From an uncultured Gemmatimonadales bacterium (GTDB lineage Bacteria > Gemmatimonadota > Gemmatimonadetes > Gemmatimonadales > GWC2-71-9): a DNA stretch of 64,000 nt. Under the pieces are notes generated by a model, which was given only the letters and a program-made list of their open reading frames with translations, ran no database searches and was not told the DNA's origin. This document shows, piece after piece, positions 15,086-45,824 of the stretch (the stretch's first letter is position 1; the number at the start of each line of letters is the position of its first letter). The DNA is taken from contig CAVUMU010000011.1 of NCBI GenBank assembly GCA_963742755.1, positions 256,147 to 320,146 on the forward strand, in the 5' to 3' direction. Both the position numbers and the translations under genes were made by a program.

Positions 15086-15101
15086 TGAAGAAAGGGTGAA
15101 G
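15086..15101 (-). promoter_or_regulatory. CTTCA-N6-CTTCA direct-repeat site A (upstream of USP 15036; divergent from the kinase)
   Basis: Plus strand TGAAGaaagggTGAAG. Gene sense ggCTTCACcctttCTTCATgg. 49 nt from the ATG. Confidence 0.6.
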
Positions 15102-15158
15102 CCGGCAGGAATATTTTCCGGATTTGGGGCGGCCGAACTTTCGCTGTAGCTTACGAGG

Positions 15159-16397
15159 GTGTCCCCTACCTCCATTCCCCGTCCGGTACCTCCCCGGGTG
15201 CGGCTGGAGCGGCTCGTGGTAGCCGCCTCATCGCTGATCACTGAGGTGTCCCTCGAAGGGGTGCTCGAGCGGGTGGTCGAGGTGGCGGCCGAGGTCATCG
15301 GCGCCCGATACGCAGCCATCGGTGTGCTGGCACCCGATGGGCGGCTCCTGGAAAGCTTTACCACGCACGGCATCGATGCCGAGCATCGTGCGCTCATCGG
15401 AGATCTTCCCCGGGGCCACGGCATTCTGGGACTCGTCATCCGCGCGGCCAGACCGATTCGTCTGCCCGATCTCACCCAACACCCCGACTCCTACGGCTTC
15501 CCGCCGCACCATCCTCCCATGCACTCGTTCCTGGGGGTTCCGATCGTCGGGAAGCGCGGCATCTTCGGGAATCTCTATCTCACCGAGAAGCTGGGCGGCG
15601 AGGCATTCACCGAGGATGACGAGCACATCGCTATTCTGCTGGCCGCCAACACGGCCGCCGCGGTAGAGAATGCCCGCTTGCATGAGGAGAGCGCTCAGCT
15701 GCTGGAGGAAGTGCAGCAGCTCCATCGCAACCGGGAACGCTTCTTCGCCATGGTGAACCACGAGTTGCGGAACGCCCTGGCCGCGGTCCAGGGTTGGTCG
15801 GAAATGATGGTTCGGAAGAAGGACCCCGCAACCGTACCCAAGGCGGCGTTCGAGGTGTTCGACTCGGCGAAACAGGCGGTTGGGCTGATCAACGACTTGC
15901 TCGATCTGAGCCGGCTCGACGAAGACCGCCTTCGACCCGTCATCCGTGCCCACGAAGCGGGCTCCATGGCCCGGCGGGCCCTAGCCCGGGTTACCCCCGC
16001 GGCCGTGGCGAAGGGGGTCAAACTACAATTGGATGTCGCCTCTGATCTCCCCAGCTGCAAGACCGACGCGAGCAGGGTCGAGCAGATCCTGCTCAACTTG
16101 CTGGGCAACGCCATGAATCACGCGCCGGAAGGTAGCACCATCGTTCTCGAGGTCACCGCCCGTGATTCGATGGTGGTCTACACCCTGGAGGACCAGGGAC
16201 CGGGGATCGCGGAGAGTGAAATCGAGCGGGTCTTCGACATCTATGTCACCAAGGACCCGGACGATACCCGTGGCATGGGACTTGGGCTCCCGCTCTCCCG
16301 CCGCCTGGCCCAGCTCCTCGGCGGAGAGCTTCGGGCGGTTGCCCGCCCCGGCCAGGGCGGCTGCTTCATTCTGGAGCTGCCTGGCTCGTGGACGTGA
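15159..16397 (+). CDS. Cytoplasmic GAF-domain sensor histidine kinase
   Basis: GAF region (GHGILGLVIRAARPIRLPDLTQHPDSYGFPPHHPPMHSFLGVPI...GNLYLTEK), H-box FFAMVNHELRNAL, and ATPase N/G boxes (LLNLLGNAMNH, DQGPGI, GMGLGL). No TM segment. GTG start; an alternative GTG lies near 15198. Confidence 0.9.
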   Translation: MSPTSIPRPVPPRVRLERLVVAASSLITEVSLEGVLERVVEVAAEVIGARYAAIGVLAPDGRLLESFTTHGIDAEHRALIGDLPRGHGILGLVIRAARPIRLPDLTQHPDSYGFPPHHPPMHSFLGVPIVGKRGIFGNLYLTEKLGGEAFTEDDEHIAILLAANTAAAVENARLHEESAQLLEEVQQLHRNRERFFAMVNHELRNALAAVQGWSEMMVRKKDPATVPKAAFEVFDSAKQAVGLINDLLDLSRLDEDRLRPVIRAHEAGSMARRALARVTPAAVAKGVKLQLDVASDLPSCKTDASRVEQILLNLLGNAMNHAPEGSTIVLEVTARDSMVVYTLEDQGPGIAESEIERVFDIYVTKDPDDTRGMGLGLPLSRRLAQLLGGELRAVARPGQGGCFILELPGSWT

Positions 16398-16455
16398 AGA
16401 AACCTTCATTGAGGCTTCCCACGGTTCTCACCGATCCGGTGGGAGATTCCCCAGG

Positions 16456-17157
16456 GTGAAAATCCTTGTGGTGGAGGACGACCGGAAGGTCGCCGGGTTC
16501 ATCGAGCAGGGCCTGAAAGAAGAGGGCTACGTGGTGGACGTGGCCGCGGATGGCGACGAGGCGACGCTGCTGGCCCATGTCTACGACTACGACATCATCC
16601 TGCTGGATGTCGTGCTGCCGAAGAAGAATGGTTTCCAGATCGCCACCGAGCTCCGTCGCGAGGGGCGGACCACTCCGATCTTGATGCTGACCTCCCGGGA
16701 CGCGGTCGAGGATGTCGTGCGCGGACTCGACTCGGGCGCGGACGACTACCTGGCAAAGCCGTTTCCCTTCGACGAGCTCCTCGCCCGGATCCGCGCGCTG
16801 CATCGCCGGGGAGGCGCCGAGCGGCTGGAGGTGCTCCGCTATCCACCGATCGCACTCGACCGGCTCCGGCACGTGGCTACGGTCAACGACAAGCGGCTGG
16901 ATCTCACCCCCAAGGAGTTTCAGCTGCTCGAGTATTTCCTGCTTCATCCCGAAGAGGTCGTCCGGCGCACCACGCTCCTGGAGAAGGTATGGGACATGCA
17001 CTTCGATCCGGAGAGCAACGTAGTGGACGTGCATGTGGGCAATCTGCGCCGGAAGCTGACCGAGGGAGCCCAGGAGCAGCTCCTGACCACGGTGCGGGGG
17101 GTGGGGTTCAGCCTCCGCCGCGGCGGGGAAGCCGCAGAGATATTGCCCGCCATCTAG
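16456..17157 (+). CDS. OmpR/PhoB-family response regulator
   Basis: GTG start. VKILVVEDDRKVAGFI...DIILLDVVLPKKNGF...LMLTSRD...DDYLAKPF is the receiver domain. The C-terminal winged helix is LTPKEFQLLEYFLLHPEEVVRRTTLLEKVWD...TVRGVGFSL. Confidence 0.9.
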   Translation: MKILVVEDDRKVAGFIEQGLKEEGYVVDVAADGDEATLLAHVYDYDIILLDVVLPKKNGFQIATELRREGRTTPILMLTSRDAVEDVVRGLDSGADDYLAKPFPFDELLARIRALHRRGGAERLEVLRYPPIALDRLRHVATVNDKRLDLTPKEFQLLEYFLLHPEEVVRRTTLLEKVWDMHFDPESNVVDVHVGNLRRKLTEGAQEQLLTTVRGVGFSLRRGGEAAEILPAI

Positions 17158-17168
17158 CCGCCAGCCGG

Positions 17169-19004
17169 TTGGGCCGGTTCTACCTTCTCCCGGCCGGCGC
17201 TCTCCTTTTCATTCTGACGGGGTTGGTCCTTCATCTCACAGGGCGGCCCGTTGCGGCAGCCCTGCTCTGGAGCGCGGGGCTCGCGATCACCGGGGCGCCG
17301 GTCGTATGGCAGACCCTCCGCGGCATGGCCGGGGGCCGTTTCGCTGCAGACCTGGTGGCGATGCTGGCTATCGTCACCGCCCTCATTCTGCGGGAGCCGC
17401 TTGCCGGGCTCATAGTGGTGCTCATGCAGACCGGCGGCGAGGCACTTGAGCGGTATGCCCAGGGGCGAGCCTCGGAGGCGGTTCGAGACCTGGAAGCGGC
17501 GGCGCCGCGAGTGGCTCATCGCGTAGTGGATGGCGCGGTGGAGGATGTGCCGGCGGAGACCGTGCGGGTCGGCGACAACCTCCTGCTGCGGCCGGGGGAG
17601 CTGTTGGCCTGCGACGCCGTGGTGCTGGAGGGCCGATCCCATGTAGATGCGGCGCGAATCACGGGAGAGCCCGTGCCGGTGAGCGCTTATCCCGGGATAA
17701 CACTGCTCAGCGGCAGTCTCAACCTCGAGGGTCCCCTCACCGTCCGCGCGACGGCCCCCGCCAGCGAGAGCCAGTACGCCCGTATCGTGGAGCTGGTCCG
17801 CAGCGCTCAGGGGAGCAAGTCGCCCCTCCAGCGGCTGGCCGACCGCTACGCCGTCTGGTTCACCCCCATCACCATCGCCGTCTCCGCGGCGACTTATCTC
17901 CTCTCCGGCGACGCCACCCGCGTGCTCGCCGTGCTGGTCGTGGCGACTCCATGCCCTCTTATCCTCGCGACGCCCGTGGCGGTAGTCGGCGGCATCAATC
18001 GCGCGGCGCGCCACGGAATCATTTTCCGCCACGGCACCGCGCTCGAGCAGCTCGGCCGGGTGGCAGTGGCCATCTTCGACAAAACCGGAACACTCACGAT
18101 AGGGCGGCCCGAGGTCGCCCGGGTGCTGACGGTTGCAGAATTCACCGAGGGCGAGATGCTCCGCCTCGCCGGCAGCGTGGAGCATGGGTCCGGCCATCTG
18201 CTCGCTCGAACGCTGGTTCAGTATACGGTCGAGCGCGGAATCGTTCTCCCTCCAGGGGTGCACATCACCGAGGCGCCAGGCCAGGGGGTGAGTGGTGAGG
18301 TGGAAGGTCACTCCGTGACGGTGGGTGGCTGGTCGTTCGTGGTGGGTCGCCATCCCGAGGCCGAGCCAACGCTCCGCGGCTTGCGGGCCCAGACGCAAGG
18401 CGCGGAGCTCAGGGCCTATGTGGCGGTGGATGGACTGGGCGCCGGGTTGATCGAATATGCCGACCGCCTGCGTCCGGAGCTGGCCGGCTTCATTCCGGAG
18501 CTGCGCCGGCTGGGCGTCTCACGGATTGTCCTGCTCTCCGGCGACGATCAGGCTAACGCCACGGCTGTGGGGAACGCGGTCGGGATTGACGAGGTGCAGG
18601 GTGACCTGCTGCCCGGGGCAAAAGTCGCCTACGTGCAGCGGCTGATGAAGGAAGGACAGCGGGTGCTGATGGTGGGCGACGGCACCAACGACGCGCCGGC
18701 ACTCAGCACAGCGACGGTGGGTATCGCGCTCGCCGCCGGTGGAGGCGGAATCACCGCCGAGGCCGCGGATGCGGTGATCCTGGCCGATGACCCGACTCGA
18801 GTCGCCGAGGCCATCAAGATCAGTCGCCGCACCCTCGGAATTGCCCGGCAGAGCATCTGGGCCGGGCTGGGGCTGAGCGGATCTGCCATGGTGGTGGCGA
18901 GCCTCGGCTATATCCCCCCTGTCGCGGGTGCCCTCCTCCAGGAGGCTATTGACGTCGCCGTGATCCTCAATGCCCTGCGCGCCGCCTTCCCCGGGCGGGA
19001 GTGA
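17169..19004 (+). CDS. P1B-type heavy-metal ATPase with PCP transmembrane motif and no N-terminal metal-binding domain
   Basis: VVATPCPLILATP, DKTGTLT and GDGTNDAPAL motifs. The start is uncertain; TTG 17169 is the first plausible start after the regulator stop, and the first ATG is about 17326. Confidence 0.8.
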   Translation: MGRFYLLPAGALLFILTGLVLHLTGRPVAAALLWSAGLAITGAPVVWQTLRGMAGGRFAADLVAMLAIVTALILREPLAGLIVVLMQTGGEALERYAQGRASEAVRDLEAAAPRVAHRVVDGAVEDVPAETVRVGDNLLLRPGELLACDAVVLEGRSHVDAARITGEPVPVSAYPGITLLSGSLNLEGPLTVRATAPASESQYARIVELVRSAQGSKSPLQRLADRYAVWFTPITIAVSAATYLLSGDATRVLAVLVVATPCPLILATPVAVVGGINRAARHGIIFRHGTALEQLGRVAVAIFDKTGTLTIGRPEVARVLTVAEFTEGEMLRLAGSVEHGSGHLLARTLVQYTVERGIVLPPGVHITEAPGQGVSGEVEGHSVTVGGWSFVVGRHPEAEPTLRGLRAQTQGAELRAYVAVDGLGAGLIEYADRLRPELAGFIPELRRLGVSRIVLLSGDDQANATAVGNAVGIDEVQGDLLPGAKVAYVQRLMKEGQRVLMVGDGTNDAPALSTATVGIALAAGGGGITAEAADAVILADDPTRVAEAIKISRRTLGIARQSIWAGLGLSGSAMVVASLGYIPPVAGALLQEAIDVAVILNALRAAFPGRE

Positions 19005-19030
19005 CAACGGGAAAGAGAGATTCCGGCACC

Positions 19031-19046
19031 CTTCAGGATGTCTTCA
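19031..19046 (+). promoter_or_regulatory. CTTCA-N6-CTTCA direct-repeat site F (upstream of the HAD/otsB-GH65 operon)
   Basis: ccCTTCAGgatgtCTTCATgg, 55 nt before ATG 19102. Confidence 0.6.
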
Positions 19047-19101
19047 TGGACCGGGTGCAACCTTACCGCGCATGCGCATGGCACCGACAGGGGGGATAGC
19101 T

Positions 19102-20740
19102 ATGCATGGGGAGTCGCCACTCGAGGTGCTCGGCAAGCGCTTTGCTGAGGGCGGGCTGACCACCGAGGACTACGAGGAGCGCGGCTCGAAGCTCGGCTTC
19201 GAGGCCGCCGTGTTCGATCTGGATGGCGTGCTGACGCTCACGGCGAGCCTCCACTCGGCCTCGTGGACAGCGCTTTTCGACGACTACCTGCGCGTCCGCG
19301 CCGAGCGCACCGGCCAGCCTTTCCACCCCTTCACGGAAGCGGACTACCGGGCCTACGTCGACGGCCGGCCGCGGTACGACGGCGTGCGCACGTTCCTCGC
19401 AGCCCGGGGGATCACCCTGCCCGACGGCGAGCCCTCCGACCCGCCGGAGCGGGAGACCGTCTGCGGGCTGGGGAACCGCAAGAACGCGCTCTTCCTGGCT
19501 CGCGTCGCGGAGGAGGAGGTGCCGGCCGATCCGGCGGCGGTCGGACTGGTGCGGGAGCTGCGCGCGAGCGGTGTCCGCGTCGGCCTGGCCTCTTCCAGCA
19601 AGAATACCGGACCGATTCTAAGGCGTGCCGGGCTCGACGGCCTCTTCGACGCCGTGGTCGACGGCGTTACCGGAGATCGTCTCGGACTCGACGGGAAGCC
19701 GGCGCCGGCCATCTTCCTCGAGTGTTTAAGACGCCTGGGAGCCCACGACCCCGCCCGGGCCGTGGTTGTGGAGGACGCAGACTCCGGGGTGGAGGCCGGA
19801 AGCCGCGGCGGCTTCGGCCTCGTGCTCGGGGTGGACCGCGGCGGGCGCGGTATCGCCCTGCGGGAGCACGGCGCCGACTGGGTCGTACGCGATTTCAAGG
19901 CCATCACGGCTGAACGGCTGGGGCAGTACTTCGCCAACCGGATCCACGCCCGCCCGAACGCGATCGCCCATTGGCCGGACCTCGAGGGAGAGCTGGGCCG
20001 CCGCAGGCCGGCGATCTTCCTCGACTACGACGGCACCCTCACTCCCATCGTGAGCCGTCCGGAACTGGCGGTCCTGGACGAGGGAATGCGGGCCGCCCTT
20101 CGCGACGTCGCGCACCCCTGGCCAACCACGATCGTGAGCGGACGCGGCCGAGACGACGTGGCGGAACTGGTCGGCCTCAGCGAGCTCAATTACGCGGGGA
20201 GCCACGGGTTCGACATCTCGGGGCCTCAGCCCCCGGGTCTGCGGCTCGAAGTCGCTCCAGAAGTGGTGCCGGTGCTGGACGGGGGCTTTCGCCGAGCTGC
20301 GCGACGGGACCGCGGAGATCCCGGGCGCGCTGGTCGAGAACAAGCGGTTCTCGCTCGCGGTGCACTATCGCCTGGTTCCTCCGGAGCGGGTGGCGGAGCT
20401 CGAGCGGATCGTGGACCAGGCGCTCGCGCACCGGCCGCAGCTCCGGAAGGCACTCGGCAAAAAGGTCTTCGAGCTTCGGCCCGCCATCGAGTGGGACAAA
20501 GGCAAGGCGGTGCTCTGGCTGCTGGAGACGCTGGATCTCGCCGGTCCGGAGGTCGCCCCGGTGTACGTCGGCGATGACGTCACCGACGAGGATGCATTCC
20601 AGGCGCTTGCTGACCGCGGGATCGGCATTCTGGTGGCCGAGCTGCCGCGGCCGACGGCCGCGCGCTACACCGTGCAGGACGTCACCGAGGTGGAGGAGCT
20701 GCTCCGCCGCCTCGCCGGCCTCGCCGGCGCTCCCCGATGA
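19102..20740 (+). pseudogene. Beta-phosphoglucomutase-like HAD / trehalose-6-phosphate phosphatase fusion, frame broken at the G5 run 20281-20285
   Basis: Frame 1 has AVFDLDGVLTLT...KPAPAIFLE...VVEDADSGVEAG (HAD-IA), then IFLDYDGTLTPIV...SGRGRDDV...YAGSHGFDI (TPP). After ..PVLDG the homology continues in frame 2 (ORF 20360..20740 and upstream): [30 protein letters not shown]...[13 protein letters not shown]. Removing one G restores LDGAFAELRDG. Confidence 0.75.
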
Positions 20741-23217
20741 GCGCCACGCTCGCAACGACTCGGGTGCAGGCGGACGGCGCCGCGACGGGCGCTGTGCCCG
20801 CGATCGATCCCTGGGTGCTGCGCTATACGGGCTTCAATCCCCAGCAGGAAGGCCTCCGCGAGGCGCTCTGCGCCCTCGGTAATGGATTGTTCCTGACCCG
20901 CGGCGCGGCCACCGAGGCGAGCGCTGACGACGTGCACTATCCGGGCACCTACGCCGCCGGTGGCTACAACGAGTTGGCCAGCGAAGTCGCCGGCCGCACC
21001 GTCGTCAATGAAGACCTGGTCAACTTTCCCAATTGGCTCCGGCTCACGTTCCGGCCCGAGGAGGGCGAGTGGCTCGAGCTAGGGAACGTGGAGCTCCTGT
21101 CCTACCGGCAGGAGCTGAACCTGCGGGAGGGGATGTTGGCGAGGCACTTCCGCTGCCGGGACGGCCAGGGCCGGGAGACGACGGTCGCCGAGCGACGCCT
21201 GGTACACATGCAAACGCCCCACCTGGCCGCGATCGACTATCGCATCACGCCGGAGAATTGGGGCGGGGCCATCCGGATCCGGTCCGAGCTCGATGGATCG
21301 GTGATCAACGCGGGGGTGCGGCGGTACCGCCAGCTCGCCAGCCGCCATCTCGAGGTGCCCGCGCGGGGCGCCGTGGCGCCCGAGGGTGTCTACCTCCTGG
21401 CGCGCACGACGCAGTCCCGGATCGAGGTGGCGCAGGCCGCGCGCACCCGCCTCTACCGCGGCGCGGAGCGGCTCGATGGAGAGCGGCTGGTGGTGCAGGA
21501 GCAGCCGGATCGGATCGGGGAGGAGCTGCGCGCGAGCATCACCGCCGGGGAAACGCTCCGGGTGGAAAAGGTTGTCGGGCTGTACCGATCCCGCGACCGC
21601 GGGATCGGCGACCCTGCCCAGGAGGCGCGGCTCGCCATCGGACGCGCGCCGGGCTTCGACGAGCTGGTCGCCGGGCACCGACTGGCCTGGCAGGCACTCT
21701 GGCAGCGCTTCGATATCGAGATCGGCGGGCCCAGTGCCCAGGGTGGAGTGCTGGCCACGGAGCAGCTGATTCTCCGGCTCCACATTTATCAGCTGCTCCA
21801 GACCGTCTCGCCGCACACGGTCGGTCTCGACGTCGGCGTACCGGCGCGCGGCCTCCATGGCGAGGCCTACCGGGGGCACATCTTCTGGGACGAGCTGTTC
21901 ATTCTGCCCTTCTACGAGCTCCGGGTGCCGTCCATCACCCGCTCCCTCCTGCTCTACCGCTACTATCGGCTCGACGCCGCGCGGGAGCTCGCGCGCGCGG
22001 CCGGCTACGCCGGGGCGATGTACCCCTGGCAGAGCAGCAGCGGTGGCCGAGAGGCTACCCAGGAGCTGCATCTCAACCCGCTCTCGGGTCGGTGGGAGCC
22101 AGACTACAGCCGGCTCCAGCGGCATGTGAACGCCGCCATCGTCTTCAACGTCTGGAGTTACTGGCGAGCAACCGGCGACCGGGCATTCCTGAGGGACTAC
22201 GGGGCGGAGATGCTGCTGGAGATTGCCCGCTTCTGGTCCAGCATCGCGTCGTGGAACGAGGCGCGCGACCGGTACGAGATCACGGGTGTCATGGGACCCG
22301 ACGAGTACCACGAACGATATCCGGAATCCCCCTCCGGCGGACTCAGGAACAACGGGTACACCAACGTGATGGCGGCCTGGTGTCTGCTCCGTGCACTTGA
22401 CACGCTGGAGGAGGTCGGACGCGCGCGCCGCGCCGAGCTGCTGGCGATGCTCGGCATTCAGGAGCACGAGCTGGAACGCTGGGGAGAGATCAGCCGGAAG
22501 ATGTTTGTGCCGTTCATCGACGGTGGCGTGATCGAGCAGTTCGAGGGGTATGACGACCTGGAGGCGCTCGACTGGGAGGGGTACCGCGAGCGGTATGGGA
22601 ACATCGGGCGGCTGGACCGGATCCTGCGGGCGGAGGGCGATTCGCCGGACCGGTACCAGGTCTCGAAACAGGCGGACGCAACGATGCTCTTCTTCCTGTT
22701 CGATGAAGACGAGCTGCATCGGCTGTTCGGGCAACTCGGCTATGCCTTCGACGGAGATACGCTCCGGCGGAATCTGGAGTACTACATCCCCCGGACCAGC
22801 CACGGCTCTACCCTCAGCAAAGTCGTGTTTGCTTCGGTCACTCACCACCTCGACCGCGAGGCCGGGTGCCGGCTCTTCCTGGACGCACTCCGCAGCGACG
22901 TGAACGACGTACAGGTCGGAACGACCTCCGAGGGGATCCACCTGGGCGCCATGGGCGGCACGGTCGGCATCGTGCTGGGCCGCTACGCCGGCCTGATCCT
23001 CGAGCCGCACGGCGTCCGCTTCGATCCAGAGCTGCCCCGGATCTTTAGGGAGTTGCGCTTCCGGGTGCACTGGCGCGGCCGTTGGCTGGATGTGCACTTC
23101 ACCGAAGAGCGCCTCCGGCTGACGGCGGATGGGGACCGGGTAGAGCCGGTACCGGTCATCGTCCGCGGCCGGCGGGTTTCCGTGCCGCCGGGAGGAACCG
23201 TCGACGTGCCGCTCTGA
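20737..23217 (+). CDS. Glycoside hydrolase family 65 (trehalose/maltose/kojibiose phosphorylase-like)
   Basis: 826 aa. GNGLFLTRGA, HGEAYRGHIFWDELFILPFY, MYPWQSSSGGREATQ and QVSKQADATMLFFL are typical GH65 blocks. ATGA overlap with the preceding gene. Confidence 0.9.
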   Translation: MSATLATTRVQADGAATGAVPAIDPWVLRYTGFNPQQEGLREALCALGNGLFLTRGAATEASADDVHYPGTYAAGGYNELASEVAGRTVVNEDLVNFPNWLRLTFRPEEGEWLELGNVELLSYRQELNLREGMLARHFRCRDGQGRETTVAERRLVHMQTPHLAAIDYRITPENWGGAIRIRSELDGSVINAGVRRYRQLASRHLEVPARGAVAPEGVYLLARTTQSRIEVAQAARTRLYRGAERLDGERLVVQEQPDRIGEELRASITAGETLRVEKVVGLYRSRDRGIGDPAQEARLAIGRAPGFDELVAGHRLAWQALWQRFDIEIGGPSAQGGVLATEQLILRLHIYQLLQTVSPHTVGLDVGVPARGLHGEAYRGHIFWDELFILPFYELRVPSITRSLLLYRYYRLDAARELARAAGYAGAMYPWQSSSGGREATQELHLNPLSGRWEPDYSRLQRHVNAAIVFNVWSYWRATGDRAFLRDYGAEMLLEIARFWSSIASWNEARDRYEITGVMGPDEYHERYPESPSGGLRNNGYTNVMAAWCLLRALDTLEEVGRARRAELLAMLGIQEHELERWGEISRKMFVPFIDGGVIEQFEGYDDLEALDWEGYRERYGNIGRLDRILRAEGDSPDRYQVSKQADATMLFFLFDEDELHRLFGQLGYAFDGDTLRRNLEYYIPRTSHGSTLSKVVFASVTHHLDREAGCRLFLDALRSDVNDVQVGTTSEGIHLGAMGGTVGIVLGRYAGLILEPHGVRFDPELPRIFRELRFRVHWRGRWLDVHFTEERLRLTADGDRVEPVPVIVRGRRVSVPPGGTVDVPL

Positions 23218-23229: not shown

Positions 23230-23256
23230 CTTCCTCCCGACTTCACGATCGCTTCA
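23230..23256 (+). promoter_or_regulatory. Triple 11-bp-phased repeat site G (upstream of the CBS gene at 23328)
   Basis: aaCTTCCtcccgaCTTCAcgatcgCTTCAtcg, preceded by an inverted GAAG. Confidence 0.6.
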
Positions 23257-23327
23257 TCGTTTGGCGCCCACATTACAGTCTGGGCTGCGCCACGAGAGCA
23301 TCGGTGTTCTTCAAGCAGGAGGCTGAT

Positions 23328-25030: not shown

Positions 25031-25070
25031 CGGAATCTCCTTTTCCCCTCAAAGGATCACGAGAGAGGGG

Positions 25071-38744: not shown

Positions 38745-40019
38745 CTACAGCTCGCCATTAAAGGCAGACACCGCGGCGGAGGACCAGAGGTCGAGCTGGG
38801 CCCGCCCGCGCAGCCGCTGCTCCAGGCTGGGCGAGTCGGGGCCACCCGGCCCAGGAGTGTAGTCCGCGGTCATGACGAAGGGCCTCGCTCGCGACAATGC
38901 CACCCGCAGCCGGGCCAGATCCTCTATCCGCAAGCTCCGCCACCGCCGCGCGGCCAGGATTCGCTTGACGCTGCGCACCCCGATACCCGGAATCCGGAGC
39001 AGCTCTTCTTTGGTTCCGGTGTTGACGTCCACCGGAAATTGTCCCCTATTGCGCAGCGCCCATGCCAGCTTGGGGTCGAGCTCCAGCTCCAGGTTGGGGG
39101 CCTGGGCGGTGATAAGCTCCGCCACCCCGAAGCCGTAGAAGCGCATCAGCCAGTCGGCCTGATAAAGCCGGTGCTCCCGAAGCAATGGCGGCGCGGCGAG
39201 CGGTAGCACGCAGGACGCGTCGGGAATGGGACTGAACGCCGAGTAGTACACCCGCCTCAGGCGCTGTTCGGCGTAAAGCGTGGCGGAGGTCTCGAGCAGC
39301 ACTGCGTCGGTGGCATCGGTGGCCCCGACGATCATCTGGGTGGCCTGTCCTGCGGGAGAAAAGGCGAGCGGCTTGCGCGAGTAGGAGGAGCGCTCGAGCC
39401 GGGCCCGGTCTTCCTGGGCCTCCAGGATCCCTTCCCGGATGGTGTTCATGCCCCGAGTGATCTGGACCAGCTCCTTCTCTGGAGCCAGCGCGTCGAGATC
39501 CTGCTGCCGGGGCAGCTCCACGTTGATGCTGAGCCGGTCGGCCCAGCGGCCCGCCTCGCGGATCAGCTCCGGCGCGGCGTTGGGGATGGTCTTGAGGTGG
39601 ATGTATCCGGCGAAGCCATGGTCGCGGCGGAGCGTACGCGTCACCGTCACCAGCTGCTCCATGGTGTAATCGGGACTTCGGATGATGCCGGAGCTGAGGA
39701 AAAGCCCTTCTATATAGTTGCGGCGGTAGAAATCGAGGGTCAGGCGAACTACTTCGTCGGGGGTGAACCGGGCTCGCCGAACTCCGCTGGACCGGCGGTT
39801 GATGCAGTAGCCGCAGTCGTAGATGCAGTAGTTGGTGAGCAGAATCTTGAGCAGCGAGACGCAGCGGCCGTCGGGGGTATAGCTGTGACAGATTCCGCTG
39901 CCTTCGGTCGATCCGATTCCGCTACCCGTGGCCCGGCGGCCTTTGGCGCCGCTGCTGGCGCAGGAGGCATCGTACTTGGCCGCGTCGGCCAGGACTGCCA
40001 GTTTGTCGGAAAGCTCCAT
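38745..40019 (-). CDS. Radical SAM protein of the putative DNA modification/repair class
   Basis: The CX3CX2C cluster motif is LTNYCIYDCGYCINR. The N-terminus is DAAKYDASCASSG. The C-terminal helix-hairpin-helix is GTKEELLRIPGIGVRSVKRILAARR. Confidence 0.85.
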   Translation of the reverse strand: MELSDKLAVLADAAKYDASCASSGAKGRRATGSGIGSTEGSGICHSYTPDGRCVSLLKILLTNYCIYDCGYCINRRSSGVRRARFTPDEVVRLTLDFYRRNYIEGLFLSSGIIRSPDYTMEQLVTVTRTLRRDHGFAGYIHLKTIPNAAPELIREAGRWADRLSINVELPRQQDLDALAPEKELVQITRGMNTIREGILEAQEDRARLERSSYSRKPLAFSPAGQATQMIVGATDATDAVLLETSATLYAEQRLRRVYYSAFSPIPDASCVLPLAAPPLLREHRLYQADWLMRFYGFGVAELITAQAPNLELELDPKLAWALRNRGQFPVDVNTGTKEELLRIPGIGVRSVKRILAARRWRSLRIEDLARLRVALSRARPFVMTADYTPGPGGPDSPSLEQRLRGRAQLDLWSSAAVSAFNGEL

Positions 40020-40845
40020 ACCCGAACATAACCCGAATCAGCAGGGCGACGCAAACGCGATCGCACCGGCCACGGCCGCACCCGGTTCGACCGCTGCACA
40101 GGCTTCCCGGAGCAATGCCGCAACCCTGCGGGGGCGGCTGGCGATTCCGGTCCCCGGAGCGGGTCATGAGTGACTTCGCACGCTCGAACTGCAGGGTGAG
40201 GTGCTGCACGAACCACGGTGCGGCCAGCCGTCCGGCCTCTTCCAGCGTGCCGGGCTCCTCGAAGAGATGGCTCGCTCCCGGGATCTCGACCAACCGTGCC
40301 AGGCAGGTGAGCTGGACCAGGGCCATCTGGTTGAACCCAAGCACGATCGGATCACGGCTCCCGACCAGCAGCAGGGTGGGAGCGCGAACCCGGCGCAGCG
40401 CGTTGCCGGCCAAGTCCGGCCTTCCGCCGCGTGACACCACCGCAGCAATGTGGAGCGGGGATACCGCCGCGGCTTTCAGCGCAGCGGCCGCCCCGGTGCT
40501 GGCTCCGAAGTAACCGAAGCGAAGCCCGGCGGCCTCGGGCTGCCGACCAAGCCACCCCCTCGCCGCGAGTAGTCGCTCGCTCAGAAGTTCGATATCGAAC
40601 ACGTTGGTGCGGTCGGCGGCTTCCGCCTCGGTGAGCAGATCGAACAGCAGGGTGCCCAGCTCCGCGGCACGGAGCTGCCTCGCGACGGCGACGTTCCGCG
40701 GGCTCAGCCGGCTGCTCCCGCTGCCATGGACGAGGAGCACCAGACCCGAGGGATGGCTGGGGAGGGCAAGGCTGGCCTGCATGCGAGCCGAGCCCGCCGT
40801 GATTACTACATCCCGCTGAGTCGGCCGGCTGGTGGTTTCCGTCAT
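39922..40845 (-). CDS. Dienelactone-hydrolase-like alpha/beta hydrolase with an aberrant C-terminal tail
   Basis: LVLLVHGSGSSRLSPRN, YFGASTGAAAAL (nucleophile elbow) and IPGASHLFEEPG. After WFVQHL, about 95 Arg/Gly/Cys-rich residues run 98 nt into the next gene. ATGA overlap with the PRTase gene. Confidence 0.7.
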   Translation of the reverse strand: MTETTSRPTQRDVVITAGSARMQASLALPSHPSGLVLLVHGSGSSRLSPRNVAVARQLRAAELGTLLFDLLTEAEAADRTNVFDIELLSERLLAARGWLGRQPEAAGLRFGYFGASTGAAAALKAAAVSPLHIAAVVSRGGRPDLAGNALRRVRAPTLLLVGSRDPIVLGFNQMALVQLTCLARLVEIPGASHLFEEPGTLEEAGRLAAPWFVQHLTLQFERAKSLMTRSGDRNRQPPPQGCGIAPGSLCSGRTGCGRGRCDRVCVALLIRVMFGYGAFRQTGSPGRRGQVRCLLRQQRRQRPPGHG

Positions 40846-41489
40846 GCGGATACCCTCCTGGACCCGGTCGAGCGGAGGCACTGGATGACCTCCGCGTCTG
40901 TGGTAGGGGAGAAGTTGCGATACCAATTGCCGACCGCGCCGAAGTGCAGCGGGCAATCCAGGCAGACCACCGCATCGGCGACCCGTTCCAGTTCCGCCGC
41001 ACCTTCAGCCGAGCAGACCGGGGCGGCAAAGACGATCTGCTTCGGATGGCGCCTACGGACGGACTCGACCGCGGCTTGAGCGGTGGCGCCGGCGGCCAGG
41101 CCGTCGTCCACCAGGATGACGGTCCGCCCCTTTACCTCGATTGGGGGGCGGTTGCCCCGATACGCCCGTTCACGCCGGGCCATTTCGTCGGCCTCGCGGA
41201 CGATGACTCGCGCCAGATAATCCTGTGAGATTCCCAGGCCGGCTACCAGCTCCTGGCGAAGCAACGTCGCTCCGGGCGCCATCGCACCGATGGCAAACTC
41301 CTCGGTGCCGGGCGCACCGAGCTTTCGAACCAACTGCACATCGAGCGGTGCGTCCAGCGCTCGCGCGACCTCATGGCCGACCACGACTCCACCCCGGGCA
41401 AGGCCGAGGACGATGGGGTTCTTCCCCCGATATTGCTCCAACGCCTGAGCCAGCCTCTTGCCCGCGTGGTGACGATCGTCAAAGAGCAT
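40842..41489 (-). CDS. Phosphoribosyltransferase-domain protein
   Basis: GGAGG sits 5 nt before ATG 41489. MLFDDRHHAGKRLAQAL...IVLGLARGGVVVGHEVA and the PRPP loop VILVDDGLAAGATA are present. Confidence 0.85.
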   Translation of the reverse strand: MLFDDRHHAGKRLAQALEQYRGKNPIVLGLARGGVVVGHEVARALDAPLDVQLVRKLGAPGTEEFAIGAMAPGATLLRQELVAGLGISQDYLARVIVREADEMARRERAYRGNRPPIEVKGRTVILVDDGLAAGATAQAAVESVRRRHPKQIVFAAPVCSAEGAAELERVADAVVCLDCPLHFGAVGNWYRNFSPTTDAEVIQCLRSTGSRRVSA

Positions 41490-41545
41490 GGCAACCTCCA
41501 AGTGAAATCCTCTCCTAAGGTGAGCCGGTAGTGATAAAGCGGGGA

Positions 41546-41561
41546 TGAATCCGGGGTGAAA
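41546..41561 (-). promoter_or_regulatory. Direct-repeat site D (upstream of the PRTase operon)
   Basis: Plus strand TGAATccggggTGAAA. Gene sense gTTTCAccccggATTCAtc. 57 nt from the ATG. A second weaker 11-bp pair, TGAGC/TGATA, is at 41521/41532. Confidence 0.45.
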
Positions 41562-41590
41562 CCCGATTTCCCCGGGGGGGCTGAAGAATT

Positions 41591-41606
41591 CTTCACGACA
41601 ACTTCA
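41591..41606 (+). promoter_or_regulatory. CTTCA-N6-CTTCA direct-repeat site E (upstream of the DUF302 operon)
   Basis: CTTCAcgacaaCTTCA. The first unit is also the right arm of the perfect 14-bp palindrome TGAAGAATTCTTCA (41582-41595). 60 nt before ATG 41667. Confidence 0.6.
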
Positions 41607-41666
41607 GCGACGATCCACCTTCGCCCCAGTAGCTTCGGCTTGACTCACACCTGCGGGAGAGTAGCC

Positions 41667-42095
41667 ATGCTGCAACACGCAACCCGATACGGCATCAGTA
41701 CCACCGTGGCCCTGCCATTCGAACCCGCTCTGGCCCGAACCCGCGAGGCCCTCGCGAACGAGGGGTTCGGGGTGCTCACCGAGATCGACGTGACCGCCAC
41801 CCTGCGGAAGAAGCTGGACGTCGAGTTTCGGCCCTACATCATCCTCGGTGCCTGCAACCCGCCCCTGGCCCATCGCGCCCTCCAGGCCGAGCTGGACATC
41901 GGGCTCCTGCTGCCCTGCAACGTCGTGGTTTACGCCACCGACGATCCGGCCCGCACGGTGGTCGCGGCGCTCGACCCGGTCGAGGCCCTGAGTCTGAGCG
42001 GCACGGAGGCCATGCGACCGATCGCGGCAGAAGTCCGAGGCCGGCTGGAGCGGGTGGTGGCGAGCGTCGAAGGCCATGAAGGAGAGTCAGCATGA
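41667..42095 (+). CDS. DUF302-domain protein
   Basis: [68 protein letters not shown] is typical DUF302. ATGA overlap with the next gene. Confidence 0.8.
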
Positions 42096-42358
42096 GCAAC
42101 CAGCGCCGCATCCACGCTGAGGAGGCCAGACAAGTCGGCTCCGCCCTGGGCATCGATTGGACGGTCATCGAGCTGGAACAATTCCGGCGGGGTCTAGAGG
42201 TGGAACTGGAGCACGGGGCCCGGGATCCGGAGACCAATGTGACCAATGACGACCTCGGTCTCACGGGGAAGATCGCCTGGGCGCATCTCAAGGAGTTCCC
42301 GGACTACTACACCCGGCTGGACCGGCTCGAGGCCGAGGCGGACGGCGTTCGCCCGTAG
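42092..42358 (+). CDS. Small conserved hypothetical protein
   Basis: 88 aa, translationally coupled to the DUF302 gene. Has the LEVELEHG...TNVTNDD motif. Family name not recalled with certainty. Confidence 0.6.
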
Positions 42359-42825
42359 CTCTCGATTTCGGCGACCAGCCGGGCCCCTTCTTCTGGAAGC
42401 CGGTCCCGCGGGACGTGCTCGGCGGCGAGCTCGATATGTGAGCACCATTGCCGCAGCATCTGGAGAAACTCGCGGCTGGCCAGCGCAACCGCGGCCGCGG
42501 TCCCGCGGCGGCGCCCAACCAGGTCCAGGGCTTGTCCCAGTTGCGCTATGCGCTCACCCTCCACGGAGAGCTTCTCGGCCGTCTCAGCCGGGAGAAATGG
42601 CCGCATCTCCTTCACCAATGCACGCTCCCGGTCGAATGGCCCCTGAAACTGGTCAGCGAGGTATCGCACCCCGGTCCAGCGCTCCCAGAATCCAGCCGCT
42701 CCTGTGGTGGAAGGAGAGAGAAATAGAGTCGTCTCGCGGAGCCAGATCTCGTGGGCGGCCTTGAGCGTCCGCGCCAGGGATTGATCCTCGGCGGTCTCAG
42801 GTAGTTCCAGGGGACTCGGAGTCAT
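42307..42825 (-). CDS. Hypothetical helical protein
   Basis: GAGG sits 8 nt before ATG 42825. 172 aa, predicted all-helical. Its 3' end overlaps the convergent gene by 52 nt. Confidence 0.5.
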   Translation of the reverse strand: MTPSPLELPETAEDQSLARTLKAAHEIWLRETTLFLSPSTTGAAGFWERWTGVRYLADQFQGPFDRERALVKEMRPFLPAETAEKLSVEGERIAQLGQALDLVGRRRGTAAAVALASREFLQMLRQWCSHIELAAEHVPRDRLPEEGARLVAEIESYGRTPSASASSRSSRV

Positions 42826-42957
42826 GTTTAACCTCGAGTGATTATTGGTTCCATCTTGGGTCGGCGTCTTCGTGGTACGACCCAAGGTAGGCTGCCTGGC
42901 CTGAGTCAGACATGAGGGACGCAGGAAGGTTTCTTCACGCCGCCGGGTGTTCTGCCA

Positions 42958-44040
42958 CTAGCTCCGAGGAGCCGGAGGCTCCTGAAGGAGGCGGAGCGCC
43001 TCTTCGGCGATCCCAGCCTCCTCATCGGTCCGGATCGCGTACACGCGGAGTGGGGAGCCAGTGGCAGAAATACGCTCGTCACCGCGCGCGTTCCGGGTGG
43101 GGTCGAGCCGGAGACCCGCCCACTCAAGAGATCGGCATATCCGCTCCCTGATCGCGGGCGCGTTTTCGCCTATCCCACCAGTGAAGACCAGAGCCTGGGT
43201 CTCGCCCTCGAGCGCGGCCAGGTAAGCTCCGACATATTTCACCGCGCGATAGCAGAAGAGCTCCACCGCCTGCCGGGCTTCCGAGTCGGTTCGCGACAAC
43301 AGCTCTCGCATGTCGGCCGTACCGGCCAGCCCCTTCAACCCTGCCTCGTAGTGCAACAGGTGGCCCAGTCTCTCCCCGTCCCACCCCTGCTCCAGCAGAT
43401 GGAGCAGCACGCCGGGATCGACGTCTCCGGCTCTCGTCCCCATGATCAGCCCTTCGAGAGGGGAATACCCCATCGAGGTGTCGACCGGCTGGCCCCGCCG
43501 GATCGCCGCGGCCGAACACCCGCTGCCCAGATGCAGGCTTACGAATGTCGGCTCCGGTTCCCCGTTCAGGGCCGCCAGACGCTTCATCACAAAGCGATGG
43601 GACCAGCCGTGAAATCCATAACGCCGCACGCCGGACATCGGTGGCAGAGCATAGCGCCGGGCCAGGGGCGGAAGATCGGCGAAAAAGGCGGTATCGAAGG
43701 CGGCCACAAGGGGAACGCCCAGGGCCCTGGTGATCTCGAGCGCGCGCAGTGCCGGAGCGTTATGCAAGGGAGCCAGTGGTGTGAGCTCGGTCAGGGCCCG
43801 GAGAACGTCCTCATCGACGCGAACGACCGCAGCGAAGCGATCGCCTCCGTGTACCACACGGTGAGCCACCGCGTTCGGCCTTGCCGGGAGTGCAGTCAGC
43901 ACCCGGGCAATGAGAGACTCCTCCTCCCCGGGTGTCAGGCCGACCGATGCGGCAGCGAGCAGGCTGAGCTCATGATCCTGCGCCTGATAGAGCTTGTACT
44001 TGAGACTGGTGCTTCCGCAGTTGATCACCAGGAGCCGCAT
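42958..44040 (-). CDS. ackA: Acetate/propionate kinase
   Basis: MRLLVINCGSTSLKYKLY, HRVVHGG, APLHNP, RYGFHGWSH, LHLGSGCS, DTSMGYSPLEGLIMGTRAGDVDPG and FTGGIGENA. Compact at 360 aa. Confidence 0.85.
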   Translation of the reverse strand: MRLLVINCGSTSLKYKLYQAQDHELSLLAAASVGLTPGEEESLIARVLTALPARPNAVAHRVVHGGDRFAAVVRVDEDVLRALTELTPLAPLHNAPALRALEITRALGVPLVAAFDTAFFADLPPLARRYALPPMSGVRRYGFHGWSHRFVMKRLAALNGEPEPTFVSLHLGSGCSAAAIRRGQPVDTSMGYSPLEGLIMGTRAGDVDPGVLLHLLEQGWDGERLGHLLHYEAGLKGLAGTADMRELLSRTDSEARQAVELFCYRAVKYVGAYLAALEGETQALVFTGGIGENAPAIRERICRSLEWAGLRLDPTRNARGDERISATGSPLRVYAIRTDEEAGIAEEALRLLQEPPAPRS

Positions 44041-44282: not shown

Positions 44283-45296
44283 CTAAGCCAGCAGGACCTG
44301 GTCCACCGATCGCCTGGGCGTGTGCCGCTTTTCGGGACACATCGCGTAACCAATCCGGAGGAACTGCTGCGGCACCCATCCACTCGCCGGAATAACCCGC
44401 CCCAGCTCCGCCCGCAGAGATGGGATCTCCAGCGCTTGGCTCATCGGCTGCAGGGCGAGACCTATGCCGGTGGCATGCAGCCACAGGCGCTCCAGAGCCT
44501 GGCCGGTGCGGATCTGAGAAACTCGGTCATCGGTCCGAGTGCTGATCAGGCCGACCAACGGGGCGCTCGACAAAAGGGCGGCGTTCCGTCTCCCGATTAC
44601 TCGACCCAGATTCAATCGTGTCAGCAGGAAGCCAGTCAGCCGCGACGGAAGGCGAGGGGTCCCGAAAACTCCTTGTCTCACCCAGTGCCCCAGTTCGTTC
44701 CGGAACGCCGGGTCTGCGAATTCCATTTCATCGGCATGCAGATTCAGCTCGACCACTCGGAACCGGATCGCTGGATCGTCTAGCAGATCCACTCGCAGTC
44801 CGGGGGCGGTGCAGCGGTCCAGGAGATGTTGCCGCACTTCGCTCGCCACCGGCTCGTCGCGGTAGAGTCCATGGTGGGTACGCCGAGCCGTAATCGCGCC
44901 GAGAGCAAGCCCGCTCCGGTCAGGCGGTGCCTGGGCACCATCCGGATGGAAGGTGACAGTTGCCGCGAGCTCCTCATTCGTGGATTGGGGGAAGTAACTG
45001 ACCTCCGCACGGAACCCGAACTGCTCACCTGCGAGAAGCATATTCTCCAGCGCGCAGCCCAGGCTGATGTAGAGCTCCCGCCGCCCCCGGTCCGCCACCT
45101 GCTGCCACCGAGTCAGGTCGGCGAATACGCCGATTGTGTTCTCGCCGATCGAAAACCGCCACGGCTGGGTGTTCTTGGTCGAGGGCGCCAGCACCGCATA
45201 GCGGAGCAGAAACTCGAGCTGCTTCTGCATGGGGAATATCGCAGGGAATTGGTGGGGCGAGACCTCCCAGGGTGAAGGCGTGCTCAATGTGGTCAT
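44283..45296 (-). CDS. Acg-family nitroreductase-fold protein
   Basis: 337 aa, double nitroreductase-like fold. LEFLLRYAVLAPSTKNTQPWRF...LGCALENMLLA...GQALERLWLHATGIGLALQPMSQ resembles Acg/Rv3131-type proteins. Confidence 0.8.
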   Translation of the reverse strand: MTTLSTPSPWEVSPHQFPAIFPMQKQLEFLLRYAVLAPSTKNTQPWRFSIGENTIGVFADLTRWQQVADRGRRELYISLGCALENMLLAGEQFGFRAEVSYFPQSTNEELAATVTFHPDGAQAPPDRSGLALGAITARRTHHGLYRDEPVASEVRQHLLDRCTAPGLRVDLLDDPAIRFRVVELNLHADEMEFADPAFRNELGHWVRQGVFGTPRLPSRLTGFLLTRLNLGRVIGRRNAALLSSAPLVGLISTRTDDRVSQIRTGQALERLWLHATGIGLALQPMSQALEIPSLRAELGRVIPASGWVPQQFLRIGYAMCPEKRHTPRRSVDQVLLA

Positions 45297-45301
45297 GTCG
45301 C

Positions 45302-45703
45302 CTACAGCCGGCCGGTTGCTACCGCACGCACGATGTCCGTCGTGGAGATCACGCCGACCATCCGGTCCCCGTCCACGACGAACAGCCGATGAACGTCGCC
45401 GTAGAGCATTTCCTGAGCGGCTTGCTTGACCGTCGCATCCGGCGCGATGATCATGGGCCGAGGGGTCATGAGGTCCCGCACGAAGGTTCCCTCGAACAGC
45501 GTTGCCCGCGCCGCCTGATCTTCAGCCTCCTCCTCCGCCGCCAGGATGTCGGTCGTGGAAATCACCCCGACCAGGCGGCCGCCCTGATCCACGACCCCCA
45601 ATCCCGAGACATGGGACTCGGCCAGGCTGACCACGGCATCGTTCACGACGGCATCAAGGGGCACGGTTTGCACATCGGTTTGCATCAGCTCGGATATTTT
45701 CAT
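45302..45703 (-). CDS. CBS-pair domain protein
   Basis: 133 aa with two CBS units (VVNDAVVSLAESHVSGLGVVDQGGRLVGVISTTDIL and TVKQAAQEMLYGDVHRLFVVDGDRMVGVISTTDIV). Confidence 0.9.
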   Translation of the reverse strand: MKISELMQTDVQTVPLDAVVNDAVVSLAESHVSGLGVVDQGGRLVGVISTTDILAAEEEAEDQAARATLFEGTFVRDLMTPRPMIIAPDATVKQAAQEMLYGDVHRLFVVDGDRMVGVISTTDIVRAVATGRL

Positions 45704-45750
45704 GGTGACTTCCTTTCGAATCGAGATCTCTCAATCTGCGAGCCCGAGGC

Positions 45751-45777
45751 TGAATCCACGGTGAAGCCGGTATGAAG
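45751..45777 (-). promoter_or_regulatory. Triple 11-bp-phased repeat site C (upstream of the CBS-acg operon)
   Basis: Plus strand TGAATccacggTGAAGccggtaTGAAG. Gene sense CTTCAtaccggCTTCAccgtggATTCA. 48 nt from the ATG. Confidence 0.6.
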
Positions 45778-45797
45778 GCTTCTTTCCCATTGGGAAC

Positions 45798-45824
45798 CTT
45801 CCACCCCGCTTCATGCTTCTTTCA
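45798..45824 (+). promoter_or_regulatory. Triple 11-bp-phased repeat site I (upstream of secreted-protein gene 45951)
   Basis: CTTCCaccccgCTTCAtgcttcTTTCA, about 125 nt before the ATG. Confidence 0.45.

Follow-up and report, generated by a model that had tools for sequence, protein, structure and literature searches.

What controls a cluster of genes when most of its promoters carry the same pentamer at the same spacing? The question is raised by a stretch of 64,000 nucleotides from an uncultured Gemmatimonadales bacterium (contig CAVUMU010000011.1; hereafter the window), in which CTTCA repeats phased at exactly 11 bp precede genes for universal stress proteins (USPs), CBS-pair proteins and other stress- or dormancy-related functions. 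An original prediction had listed nine such sites (A to I) and had read them as the operator of a local regulon, tied, explicitly as a conjecture, to the adjacent OmpR-type response regulator. In this study, we describe the element, its conservation and geometry in related genomes, its association with the genes of a two-component system, and the homology of the sensor of that system to haem-binding proteins. The 11-bp-phased CTTCA repeats are real and conserved and, judging from sequence comparison, they are probably the operator of a two-component regulon in which a haem-type sensor and its OmpR-family partner would govern a stress and dormancy island.

Phased repeats and the architecture of the element

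In the window, which has a G+C content of about 67%, the exact pair CTTCA-N6-CTTCA is present seven times (at 19031, 23241 and 41591 on the plus strand and at 15086, 34854, 35067 and 45762 on the minus strand), compared with 0.05 occurrences expected, and none of 100 dinucleotide shuffles held more than one. The original prediction had estimated well under one chance pair, in agreement with this figure, and the five exact pairs that it named (A, C, E, F and G) are among the seven; its count missed those at 34854 and 35067. If one mismatch is tolerated, the matches number 17, versus 1.64 expected. When the CTTCA pairs lying 5-40 bp apart are sorted by spacing, seven fall at 11 and each other spacing is represented by none or one.

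The comparison with other genomes took in the window and, from relatives, stretches of at most 20 kb surrounding the regulator gene. The related set consists of 80 Gemmatimonadales loci around orthologues of the regulator, 1.09 Mb in total; homologues of the regulator, 83-92% identical, number in the thousands in Gemmatimonadales metagenome bins. In the related loci, 66 CTTCA pairs have a spacing of 11 and 23 a spacing of 22, other spacings being represented by 0 to 10. Direct repeats with a period of 10-11 bp, as used by regulators of the OmpR/PhoB type, are thus found both in the window and in the 80 related loci. Alignment of 73 exact sites revealed that a weaker copy of the unit, cTTCs, stands 11 bp upstream as the third of the array, that each core is followed by a pyrimidine, and that there is a -10-like TAnnnT located 12 nt past the last core, with its A (+29) in 56 of the 73 and its T (+33) in 57.

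For scoring we used a fixed matrix of 45 nt built from the related-locus sites alone, the window sites having been left out. Iterative refinement of the matrix was abandoned, as the register slid by one repeat unit and the matrix went on growing. The related loci contain 217 sites of at least 16 bits, compared with about 5 in shuffled sequence, 64 of the 217 being the exact-pair sites from which the matrix was built; the A and the T of TAnnnT are present in 200 and 202 of them, respectively. The median distance from the -10 to the downstream open reading frame (ORF) is 27 nt, and an ORF starts 5-60 nt past the -10 at 81% of the sites, versus 45% of random positions. An inverted TGAAG, outside the matrix, stands exactly 4 nt before the first direct unit at 71 of the 217 sites, no other offset being found more than 12 times, so that the full element reads TGAAG-N4-CTTCr-N6-CTTCA-N6-CTTCA-N12-TAnnnT. 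The two strong cores would lie at about -40 and -29 relative to the start. As in PHO boxes, the array overlaps or replaces the -35 region, with the proximal core about 10 nt before the predicted -10.

This matrix finds 12 hits of at least 16 bits in the window, where 0.26 are expected, and nine of at least 18 bits, where 0.07 are expected. All of them fall within an island at 15-46 kb, between genes, and each is oriented with the gene that follows. The weaker sites B, D, H and I reach 25.2, 25.5, 17.3 and 31.9 bits with this matrix from other genomes. A match of 14.9 bits at 3707-3722 on the plus strand, 5' of a tRNA-Ala gene, was treated as chance because it is out of register with the likely tRNA -10 (TACACT); the tRNA-Ala(CGC) and tRNA-Gln(CTG) genes are located at 3744-3818 and 3828-3901. 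The nine sites A to I are all present with the positions and sequences originally given, and the gene map around them bears out their description as intergenic and oriented with the downstream gene. The original list shows two or three direct units per site; overlooked were a third direct unit as a regular part of the array, the inverted TGAAG and the -10, as well as two further sites, one before the regulator gene (16395-16448) and one before the ORF at 42307-42828 (42884-42937).

The regulator and its predicted promoter

The genes next to promoter A are those that link the repeats to a regulatory system:

15159 to 16397, plus strand: cytoplasmic sensor histidine kinase with one GAF domain, HisKA and HATPase_c (Pfam); the database gene call starts at 15216.
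16395 to 16448, plus strand: regulator promoter, with the inverted TGAAG at 16395-16399 (overlapping the kinase stop codon), CTTCA at 16404, CTTCC at 16415 and TCTCA at 16426; its -10, GAGATT at 16443-16448, ends 7 nt before the GTG at 16456.
16456 to 17157, plus strand: OmpR/PhoB-family response regulator, with a receiver domain and a Trans_reg_C winged helix (Pfam).
About 17154 to 19004, plus strand: P1B-type heavy-metal P-type ATPase (TIGR01525, 502.8 bits, cut-off 346), its start not fixed.

The closest solved structures to the regulator are DrrD, PrrA and BasR/PmrA, and it reaches no equivalog cut-off in NCBIfam. Its DNA-binding residues 150-201 are invariant in 80 orthologues. When 77 distinct regulator-upstream regions are anchored at the start codon, information is found only in tgAAG, cTTCA, cTTcc, gTTCA and tAGATT, the spacers being variable, and 48 of 78 such regions score at least 12 bits, compared with 1.2% of random regions. 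In these 77 regions the -10 ends 6-7 nt before the start codon, which points to a leaderless, autoregulated transcript from which the regulator would be made. The stretch GGGAGATT (16440-16448) could double as the -10 (GAGATT) and as a Shine-Dalgarno sequence (GGGAG) on transcripts that read through from the kinase.

In 73 of the 80 loci, the gene just before that of the regulator encodes the GAF kinase, and a site of at least 16 bits facing a divergent USP operon is present in all 32 kinase-upstream regions that could be examined. Across the related loci, sites are densest, with 0.98 per kb, in the interval 1-2 kb upstream of the regulator; farther upstream the density is at most 0.14 per kb, and downstream 0.09-0.39 per kb. 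Both the domain composition and the site at its own promoter thus suggest a winged-helix regulator that is encoded with its cognate kinase and is autoregulated. The P1B ATPase is probably in the same operon, and the order of regulator and ATPase genes is kept in the related loci.

Elsewhere in the window, regulators are represented by a MalT-like LuxR protein, an extracytoplasmic function (ECF) sigma/anti-sigma pair and a PadR protein, all outside the island. The regulator at 16456 had been called the only one of OmpR type in the window, which is true among the ORFs scanned.

The sensor kinase

In the kinase, the GAF domain (residues 30-170) is followed directly by HisKA (PF00512, 192-255) and HATPase_c; judging from this Pfam domain layout alone, no stretch is left for a periplasmic metal-sensing domain. 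Along its whole length the GAF matches the haem-binding GAF-A domains of DosT (2vzw, E 2.4e-44) and DevS/DosS (2w3d and 2y79, about 1e-36), and it is about 55% identical to that of DosT. His118 (in HHPPM), which aligns with the proximal haem histidine, and Tyr140 (in NLYLTEK), which aligns with the distal tyrosine, are invariant in 68 orthologues. By homology, the two residues that characterize the DosS/DosT haem pocket appear to be in place, and the kinase is predicted to bind haem. The signal, by analogy, may be the loss of O2 or the binding of NO or CO.

Predicted promoters and target genes of the window

The remaining sites of the island and the genes that follow them are these:

15068 to 15112, minus strand: promoter A (33.6 bits), with ATTCC 15108-15112, CTTCA 15097-15101, CTTCA 15086-15090 and -10 TACCCT 15068-15073, 31 nt before the start codon at 15036.
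12927 to 15036, minus strand: target operon of A, composed of a tandem USP (14173-15036), a YgaP-like membrane protein (13907-14146) and a second tandem USP (12927-13910) (Pfam).
19020 to 19064, plus strand: promoter F (27.8 bits), with ATTCC 19020, CTTCA 19031, CTTCA 19042 and -10 AACCTT 19059-19064; targets HAD/trehalose-phosphatase (about 19102-20577) and GH65 (20737-23217), plus strand.
23230 to 23274, plus strand: promoter G (32.0 bits), with CTTCC 23230, CTTCA 23241, CTTCA 23252 and -10 CACATT 23269-23274; target CBS-pair protein (23328-23765, plus strand).
25053 to 25097, minus strand: promoter B (25.2 bits), with CTTGG 25093, GTTCA 25082, CTTCA 25071 and -10 GATCCT 25053-25058; target tandem USP (24113-25030, minus strand).
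25102 to 25146, plus strand: promoter H (17.3 and 13.7 bits, its register being ambiguous by one unit), with CTTCA 25102, CCTCA 25113 and CTTTC 25124.
About 25239 to 32451, plus strand: operon of H, composed of ppsA (about 25239-27707), a P2-type cation ATPase (27735-30431), a Na/Ca exchanger (about 30425-31429) and a D-2-hydroxyacid (lactate) dehydrogenase (about 31423-32451).
34825 to 34869, minus strand: site absent from the original list (16.6 and 17.2 bits), with CTTCA 34865, CTTCA 34854, CTGGC 34843 and -10 TATGTT 34825-34830; followed on the minus strand by a 5'-truncated ABC-ATPase remnant, an ABC-2 permease (33774-34589), DUF2231 and a VTT-domain protein.
35067 to 35093, minus strand: orphan exact pair (20.0 bits), with CTTGC 35089, CTTCA 35078 and CTTCA 35067.
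41517 to 41561, minus strand: promoter D (25.5 bits), with TTTCA 41557, ATTCA 41546, CTTTA 41535 and -10 CACCTT 41517-41522; targets phosphoribosyltransferase (PRTase, 40842-41501) and an alpha/beta hydrolase with a weak DLH match (39922-40848), minus strand.
41582 to 41635, plus strand: promoter E (21.8 bits), with inverted TGAAG 41582-41586, CTTCA 41591, CTTCA 41602, ATCCA 41613 and -10 TAGCTT 41630-41635; targets DUF302 (41664-42095) and DUF5661 (42092-42358), plus strand.
42884 to 42937, minus strand: site absent from the original list (15.4 bits), with inverted TGAAG 42933-42937, CTTCC 42924, CCTCA 42913, ACTCA 42902 and -10 TACCTT 42884-42889; target unannotated helical protein of 173 aa (42307-42828, minus strand).
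42958 to 44040, minus strand: acetate kinase (Pfam/NCBIfam gene map).
45733 to 45777, minus strand: promoter C (25.9 bits), with CTTCA 45773, CTTCA 45762, ATTCA 45751 and -10 CAGATT 45733-45738; targets CBS-pair protein (45302-45703) and Acg-family FMN oxidoreductase (44283-45296), minus strand.
45798 to 45842, plus strand: promoter I (31.9 bits), with CTTCC 45798, CTTCA 45809, TTTCA 45820 and -10 GAGATT 45837-45842; target Met-rich secreted protein (about 45948-46499, plus strand) behind a leader of about 105 nt.

The synteny of the USP-YgaP-USP operon is kept in related loci, and a PpsA orthologue is also found 3' of a site in a related locus (L039). The Acg-family protein (NCBIfam NF047509, 256 bits, cut-off 199; PDB match 2ymv) is the only clear family-level match to members of the DevR regulon; the M. 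tuberculosis proteins are not specifically the closest relatives of the USP and CBS proteins of the window. The correspondence with a DosR-type regulon, including the CtpF-type ATPase and OtsB, is accordingly one of protein families, not of orthology.

Just outside the island there are a tandem USP (47140-48048, minus strand), in line with NhaA, and a classical nitroreductase (59287-59964, minus strand), both without a CTTCA site, so that the regulon leaves out some genes of these classes. At the 34825 site, an ABC-transporter ATPase is reduced to a remnant (34596-34841, minus strand) of which only the last ~70 residues are left (LLHDVALLADRIVVMVQGRVVAQG), directly 5' of the intact ABC-2 permease, and the CTTCA-type promoter occupies the place of the missing part of that gene (34842-35202); the region 34596-35202 looks like a rearrangement or deletion scar. 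An assignment of the permease (33774-34589) as the NosY of a decayed nos cluster was dropped, as NCBIfam gave it no support. Genes of the non-homologous end-joining type at the right end of the window (61726-63998), for a LigD primase-polymerase domain protein and a C-terminal DNA ligase fragment, are unrelated to the finding.

Proposed targets in related genomes

In the related loci, the ORFs directly 3' of sites encode USPs in 76 cases, the regulator itself in 24, the helical family of the ORF at 42307-42828 in 18, two-domain multicopper oxidases in 12, clade II (Sec-type) NosZ in 8-9, CBS proteins in 8, BON-domain and Kelch-repeat proteins in 4 each, Acg in 3 and Hsp20 in 2. The multicopper oxidases, of 355 aa, had been considered as NirK; with 84 bits against a cut-off of 296, they are named here two-domain multicopper oxidases only.

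The helical family is thus among the commonest members of the regulon. Its proteins have ~160 aa, invariant Trp and His residues and a GRRRG motif, and several genomes have two copies (the family is found in L014, L016, L017, L021, L023, L028, L029, L035, L040, L043, L045, L076, L077, L089 and L102). Neither Pfam nor NCBIfam has a match for it. The AlphaFold model of the ORF at 42307 is a helical bundle, predicted with confidence (pLDDT 85). A hemerythrin-like identity was rejected: the fold search returned only generic helical bundles (E > 0.3), and Pfam none.

The NosZ of the related loci matches TIGR04246 at 929 bits. Seven of nine nosZ promoters carry the site, as TGAAG-N4-nTTCAC-N5/6-nTTCAC in register with a cAnnnT -10. 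Divergent from clade II nosZ there is an Rrf2-family regulator gene (three Cys; PF02082, 98 bits; L020:7119-7514, plus strand, with equivalents in L021, L033, L035 and L043), and a conserved AT-rich palindrome (TTAATCATAT..TCATGAT) lies between the two; nosZ may therefore be under dual control. In G. aurantiaca, N2O reduction is reported to accelerate after depletion of O2 (PMC10100939).

An unbiased metagenome scan for the motif together with the -10 returned 120 contigs, 53 of them with at least 60% G+C. The downstream ORFs of these 53 include seven tandem USPs, three Hsp20 and two members of the helical family. Four of the contigs have true kinase and/or regulator orthologues, two more have the flanking synteny, and about 19 have some OmpR-family regulator gene on the same short contig.

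Discussion

The comparison supports the original proposal of a local-regulon operator tied to the adjacent OmpR-type regulator, as far as sequence can tell. That interpretation held; it did not include the GAF domain of DosT/DosS type, the leaderless autoregulatory promoter, the inverted half-site or nosZ. We infer that the regulator binds the repeats and that it activates rather than represses. In the mechanism that we propose, the kinase, with its haem in the deoxy or the NO- or CO-bound state, would phosphorylate the regulator, by analogy with DosT/DosS. The phosphorylated regulator (16456-17157) would dimerize and oligomerize head-to-tail on direct units at about -51, -40 and -29, and would recruit RNA polymerase to promoters devoid of a -35 by class II activation, as PhoB does at PHO boxes. 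One output would be the dormancy- or fermentation-like island, comprising USPs, CBS proteins, Acg nitroreductase, trehalose-phosphatase/GH65, PRTase-hydrolase, the PpsA-ATPase-exchanger-lactate dehydrogenase operon, DUF302 and the helical protein; another, the positive autoregulation of the regulator from its leaderless internal promoter; and a third, in related genomes, the induction of clade II nosZ, Hsp20 and the two-domain multicopper oxidase.

A number of observations weigh against this interpretation or set limits to it. The orphan pair at 35067 has neither a -10 at the expected distance nor an obvious downstream gene. That no -35-like hexamer is conserved 16-19 bp from the -10 is judged by the E. 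coli model, which may not be that of this phylum. The regulator obtains its best NCBIfam score, below the cut-off, with the heavy-metal (CopR/CusR) subfamily, which, together with the P1B ATPase and with the Met-rich protein and the multicopper oxidase as targets, makes a metal signal conceivable. Some metagenome-assembled genomes (MAGs) have two copies of the regulator locus (L012/L019, L029/L064, L021/L025 and L013/L042), 86-89% identical to the query, which points to paralogues of the system within a genome, perhaps like DosS and DosT. Distant OmpR-family regulators, 42-47% identical and with a non-GAF kinase, are tied to near-identical sites in metagenome contigs, so that similar regulators can share the specificity and a paralogue could contribute; the specificity seems to belong to a branch of the family, and not necessarily to one protein. 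Whether the motif serves this regulator alone is beyond the reach of a scan of the window and of flanks no longer than 20 kb, and the relatives are all uncultured MAGs. The sites of the distant regulators read TGAAG-N4-ATTCA-N6-CTTCA-N6-CTTCA and precede membrane-fusion (HlyD/CzcB-like) efflux genes or an ORF of ~195 aa that starts 6-10 nt past the -10 (contigs L086, L095, L103, L117, L141 and L195; L128, L129, L160 and L186).

Other explanations of the repeats have to be weighed against the proposed regulon. The operator could be real and bound by another OmpR/PhoB-family regulator, either a paralogue of the system or the phosphate regulator PhoB/PhoP. PHO boxes are indeed made of 11-nt direct repeat units, the unit of S. 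coelicolor, GTTCACC (PMC4415409), resembles CTTCAyc, and site B reads GTTCAC-N5-CTTCAC; several MAGs have two copies of the regulator, and the 42-47% identical regulators are found at near-identical sites. We consider it unlikely nonetheless: no phosphate-regulon gene (pst, pho or ugp) lies 3' of the 217 related-locus and 12 window sites, the regulator scores 197 bits against the PhoB model TIGR02154 (cut-off 296), no PhoB was found in the window, and the site is kept at the promoter of this regulator and beside its kinase in essentially every locus. A repressor role for the same regulator, which would occlude the -35 or the spacer and be relieved upon dephosphorylation, is improbable to a similar degree. 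The units at about -51 to -25 do overlap the region bound by the polymerase, and OmpR-family proteins can repress from such positions, but the -10 is conserved with no conserved -35-like hexamer at 16-19 bp, and at more than 200 promoters the repeats stand in constant register with the -10. This geometry is that of PhoB-activated promoters. Autoregulated leaderless two-component promoters are, in addition, typically positive loops, Rv3134c-devRS being part of the DevR regulon (PMC3177182).

A copper or heavy-metal circuit like CopRS/CusRS, the repeats being a variant of the copper box, seems to us rather less probable still. It would account for the best NCBIfam match of the regulator (TIGR01387, heavy-metal subfamily), the name CusR given to its orthologues by JGI, the P1B ATPase that follows it in all loci, and targets such as the Met-rich secreted protein, the two-domain multicopper oxidases (12 loci) and the copper enzyme NosZ; TGAAG-N4-CTTCA presumably shares its half-site geometry with the CusR box TGACAANNTTGTCA. 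The match to TIGR01387 (234.9 bits), however, stays below the subfamily cut-off of 279.2, the only input of the kinase in the Pfam layout is a cytoplasmic, DosT-like GAF with an invariant haem ligand and no periplasmic sensor, and most targets (USPs, CBS, Acg, PpsA, lactate dehydrogenase and Hsp20) are not metal genes. Least of all do we expect the repeats to be no protein operator at all, whether as a relic of duplicated paralogue promoters or as part of promoters for an alternative sigma factor. Many of the targets are paralogous USPs, and an ECF sigma/anti-sigma pair is encoded at 56382-57745. Against the relic, at least 15 unrelated gene families are found 3' of the motif, and its pentamers are conserved where the spacers between units are not; against the sigma factor, a three- to four-fold 11-bp periodicity with an inverted unit is foreign to sigma promoters, and neither strong unit lies at the -35 distance from the -10. 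All of these alternatives explain the autoregulatory footprint and the haem-type sensor together less well than does a two-component regulon run by the GAF kinase and its OmpR-family partner.

Several known systems resemble this one. At PHO boxes, as here, the proximal core ends ~10 nt before the -10, there is no -35 and the regulator is of the winged-helix type. In both cases, direct units with an 11-nt period consist of a conserved core of 5-7 nt and a variable remainder (PMC4415409). In Streptomyces the unit, GTTCACC, comes close to the core CTTCAyc. In contrast to PHO boxes, there is here no PhoB equivalog, no phosphate gene among the targets and a haem-type GAF kinase instead of PhoR, and an extra inverted TGAAG-N4 precedes the array. 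The PmrA box is a direct repeat of YTTAAK with an 11-bp period, and the CusR box an inverted repeat whose half-sites, like those of TGAAG-N4-CTTCA, are 9 bp apart from centre to centre. BasR/PmrA is among the closest structures to the regulator, and the heavy-metal subfamily its best NCBIfam match; the core sequence differs, however, inverted and direct units are joined here in one array, and the sensor is cytoplasmic and of haem type rather than periplasmic and metal-sensing.

With DosS/DosT-DosR, the likeness lies in the sensor, predicted from homology to the GAF-A domain of DosT/DosS with conservation of the haem His and the distal Tyr, and in the tandem helically phased sites, the divergent promoters and the autoregulation of the system. 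DosS has two GAF domains and a dimerization domain of the HisKA_3 type, whereas the kinase described here has one GAF and HisKA (PF00512), not the GAF-GAF-HisKA_3-HATPase layout. The regulator is of the OmpR family instead of NarL/LuxR; the only GerE-domain protein in the window (1854-3389) is MalT-like and has no receiver. The operator is a CTTCA direct repeat, the DosR palindrome (GGGACT..AGTCCC, up to two mismatches) being found three times in the window versus 4.19 expected and at no promoter, and the system belongs to Gemmatimonadota, not Actinomycetota, with nosZ in the regulon of the relatives. The target classes do overlap, in USPs, Acg nitroreductase, CBS proteins, P-type cation ATPase, trehalose-phosphatase/GH65, PRTase with hydrolase, and Hsp20 (PMC3177182). 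Members of like classes in the DevR regulon are Rv1996, Rv2005c, Rv2623, Rv2626c, Rv2032, Rv3131, ctpF, otsB and Rv0571c (PMC3177182).

As a two-component regulon with phased direct repeats, the system is ordinary in its class. What appears to be new is the coupling, in Gemmatimonadales, of a DosT-type sensor to an output of OmpR type that has an operator to itself and would control DosR-like targets and nosZ. A literature search found nothing that joins DosR with Gemmatimonad*, or Gemmatimonas with nosZ and a response regulator, and nothing relevant on the motif or on the system in Gemmatimonadota. It is possible, and we put it forward only tentatively, that Gemmatimonadales have built, independently of Actinobacteria, a DosR-like hypoxia/NO survival regulon, in which a DosT-type haem GAF sensor has been joined to another transmitter and to an OmpR-family regulator with an operator of its own, and which has clade II nosZ under its direct control.

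Gemmatimonadota are abundant in soils and almost uncultured; to our knowledge, they have essentially no characterized transcription factors, and we know of few characterized regulators of clade II nosZ. The chemistry of haem GAF sensors is, for its part, well understood in M. tuberculosis. From the present analysis come a precise and testable putative operator, a defined set of at least 12 promoters across an island of 31 kb, and a candidate for the sensor. Sensor module and kinds of survival genes are the same as there, but another family of regulators connects them, so that regulation has been rewired in a clear-cut way. The nosZ connection suggests a route by which N2O consumption is switched on in these bacteria as oxygen is exhausted, and, if the proposal is true, the switch would be the missing oxygen/NO regulator of N2O reduction in a very abundant soil phylum.

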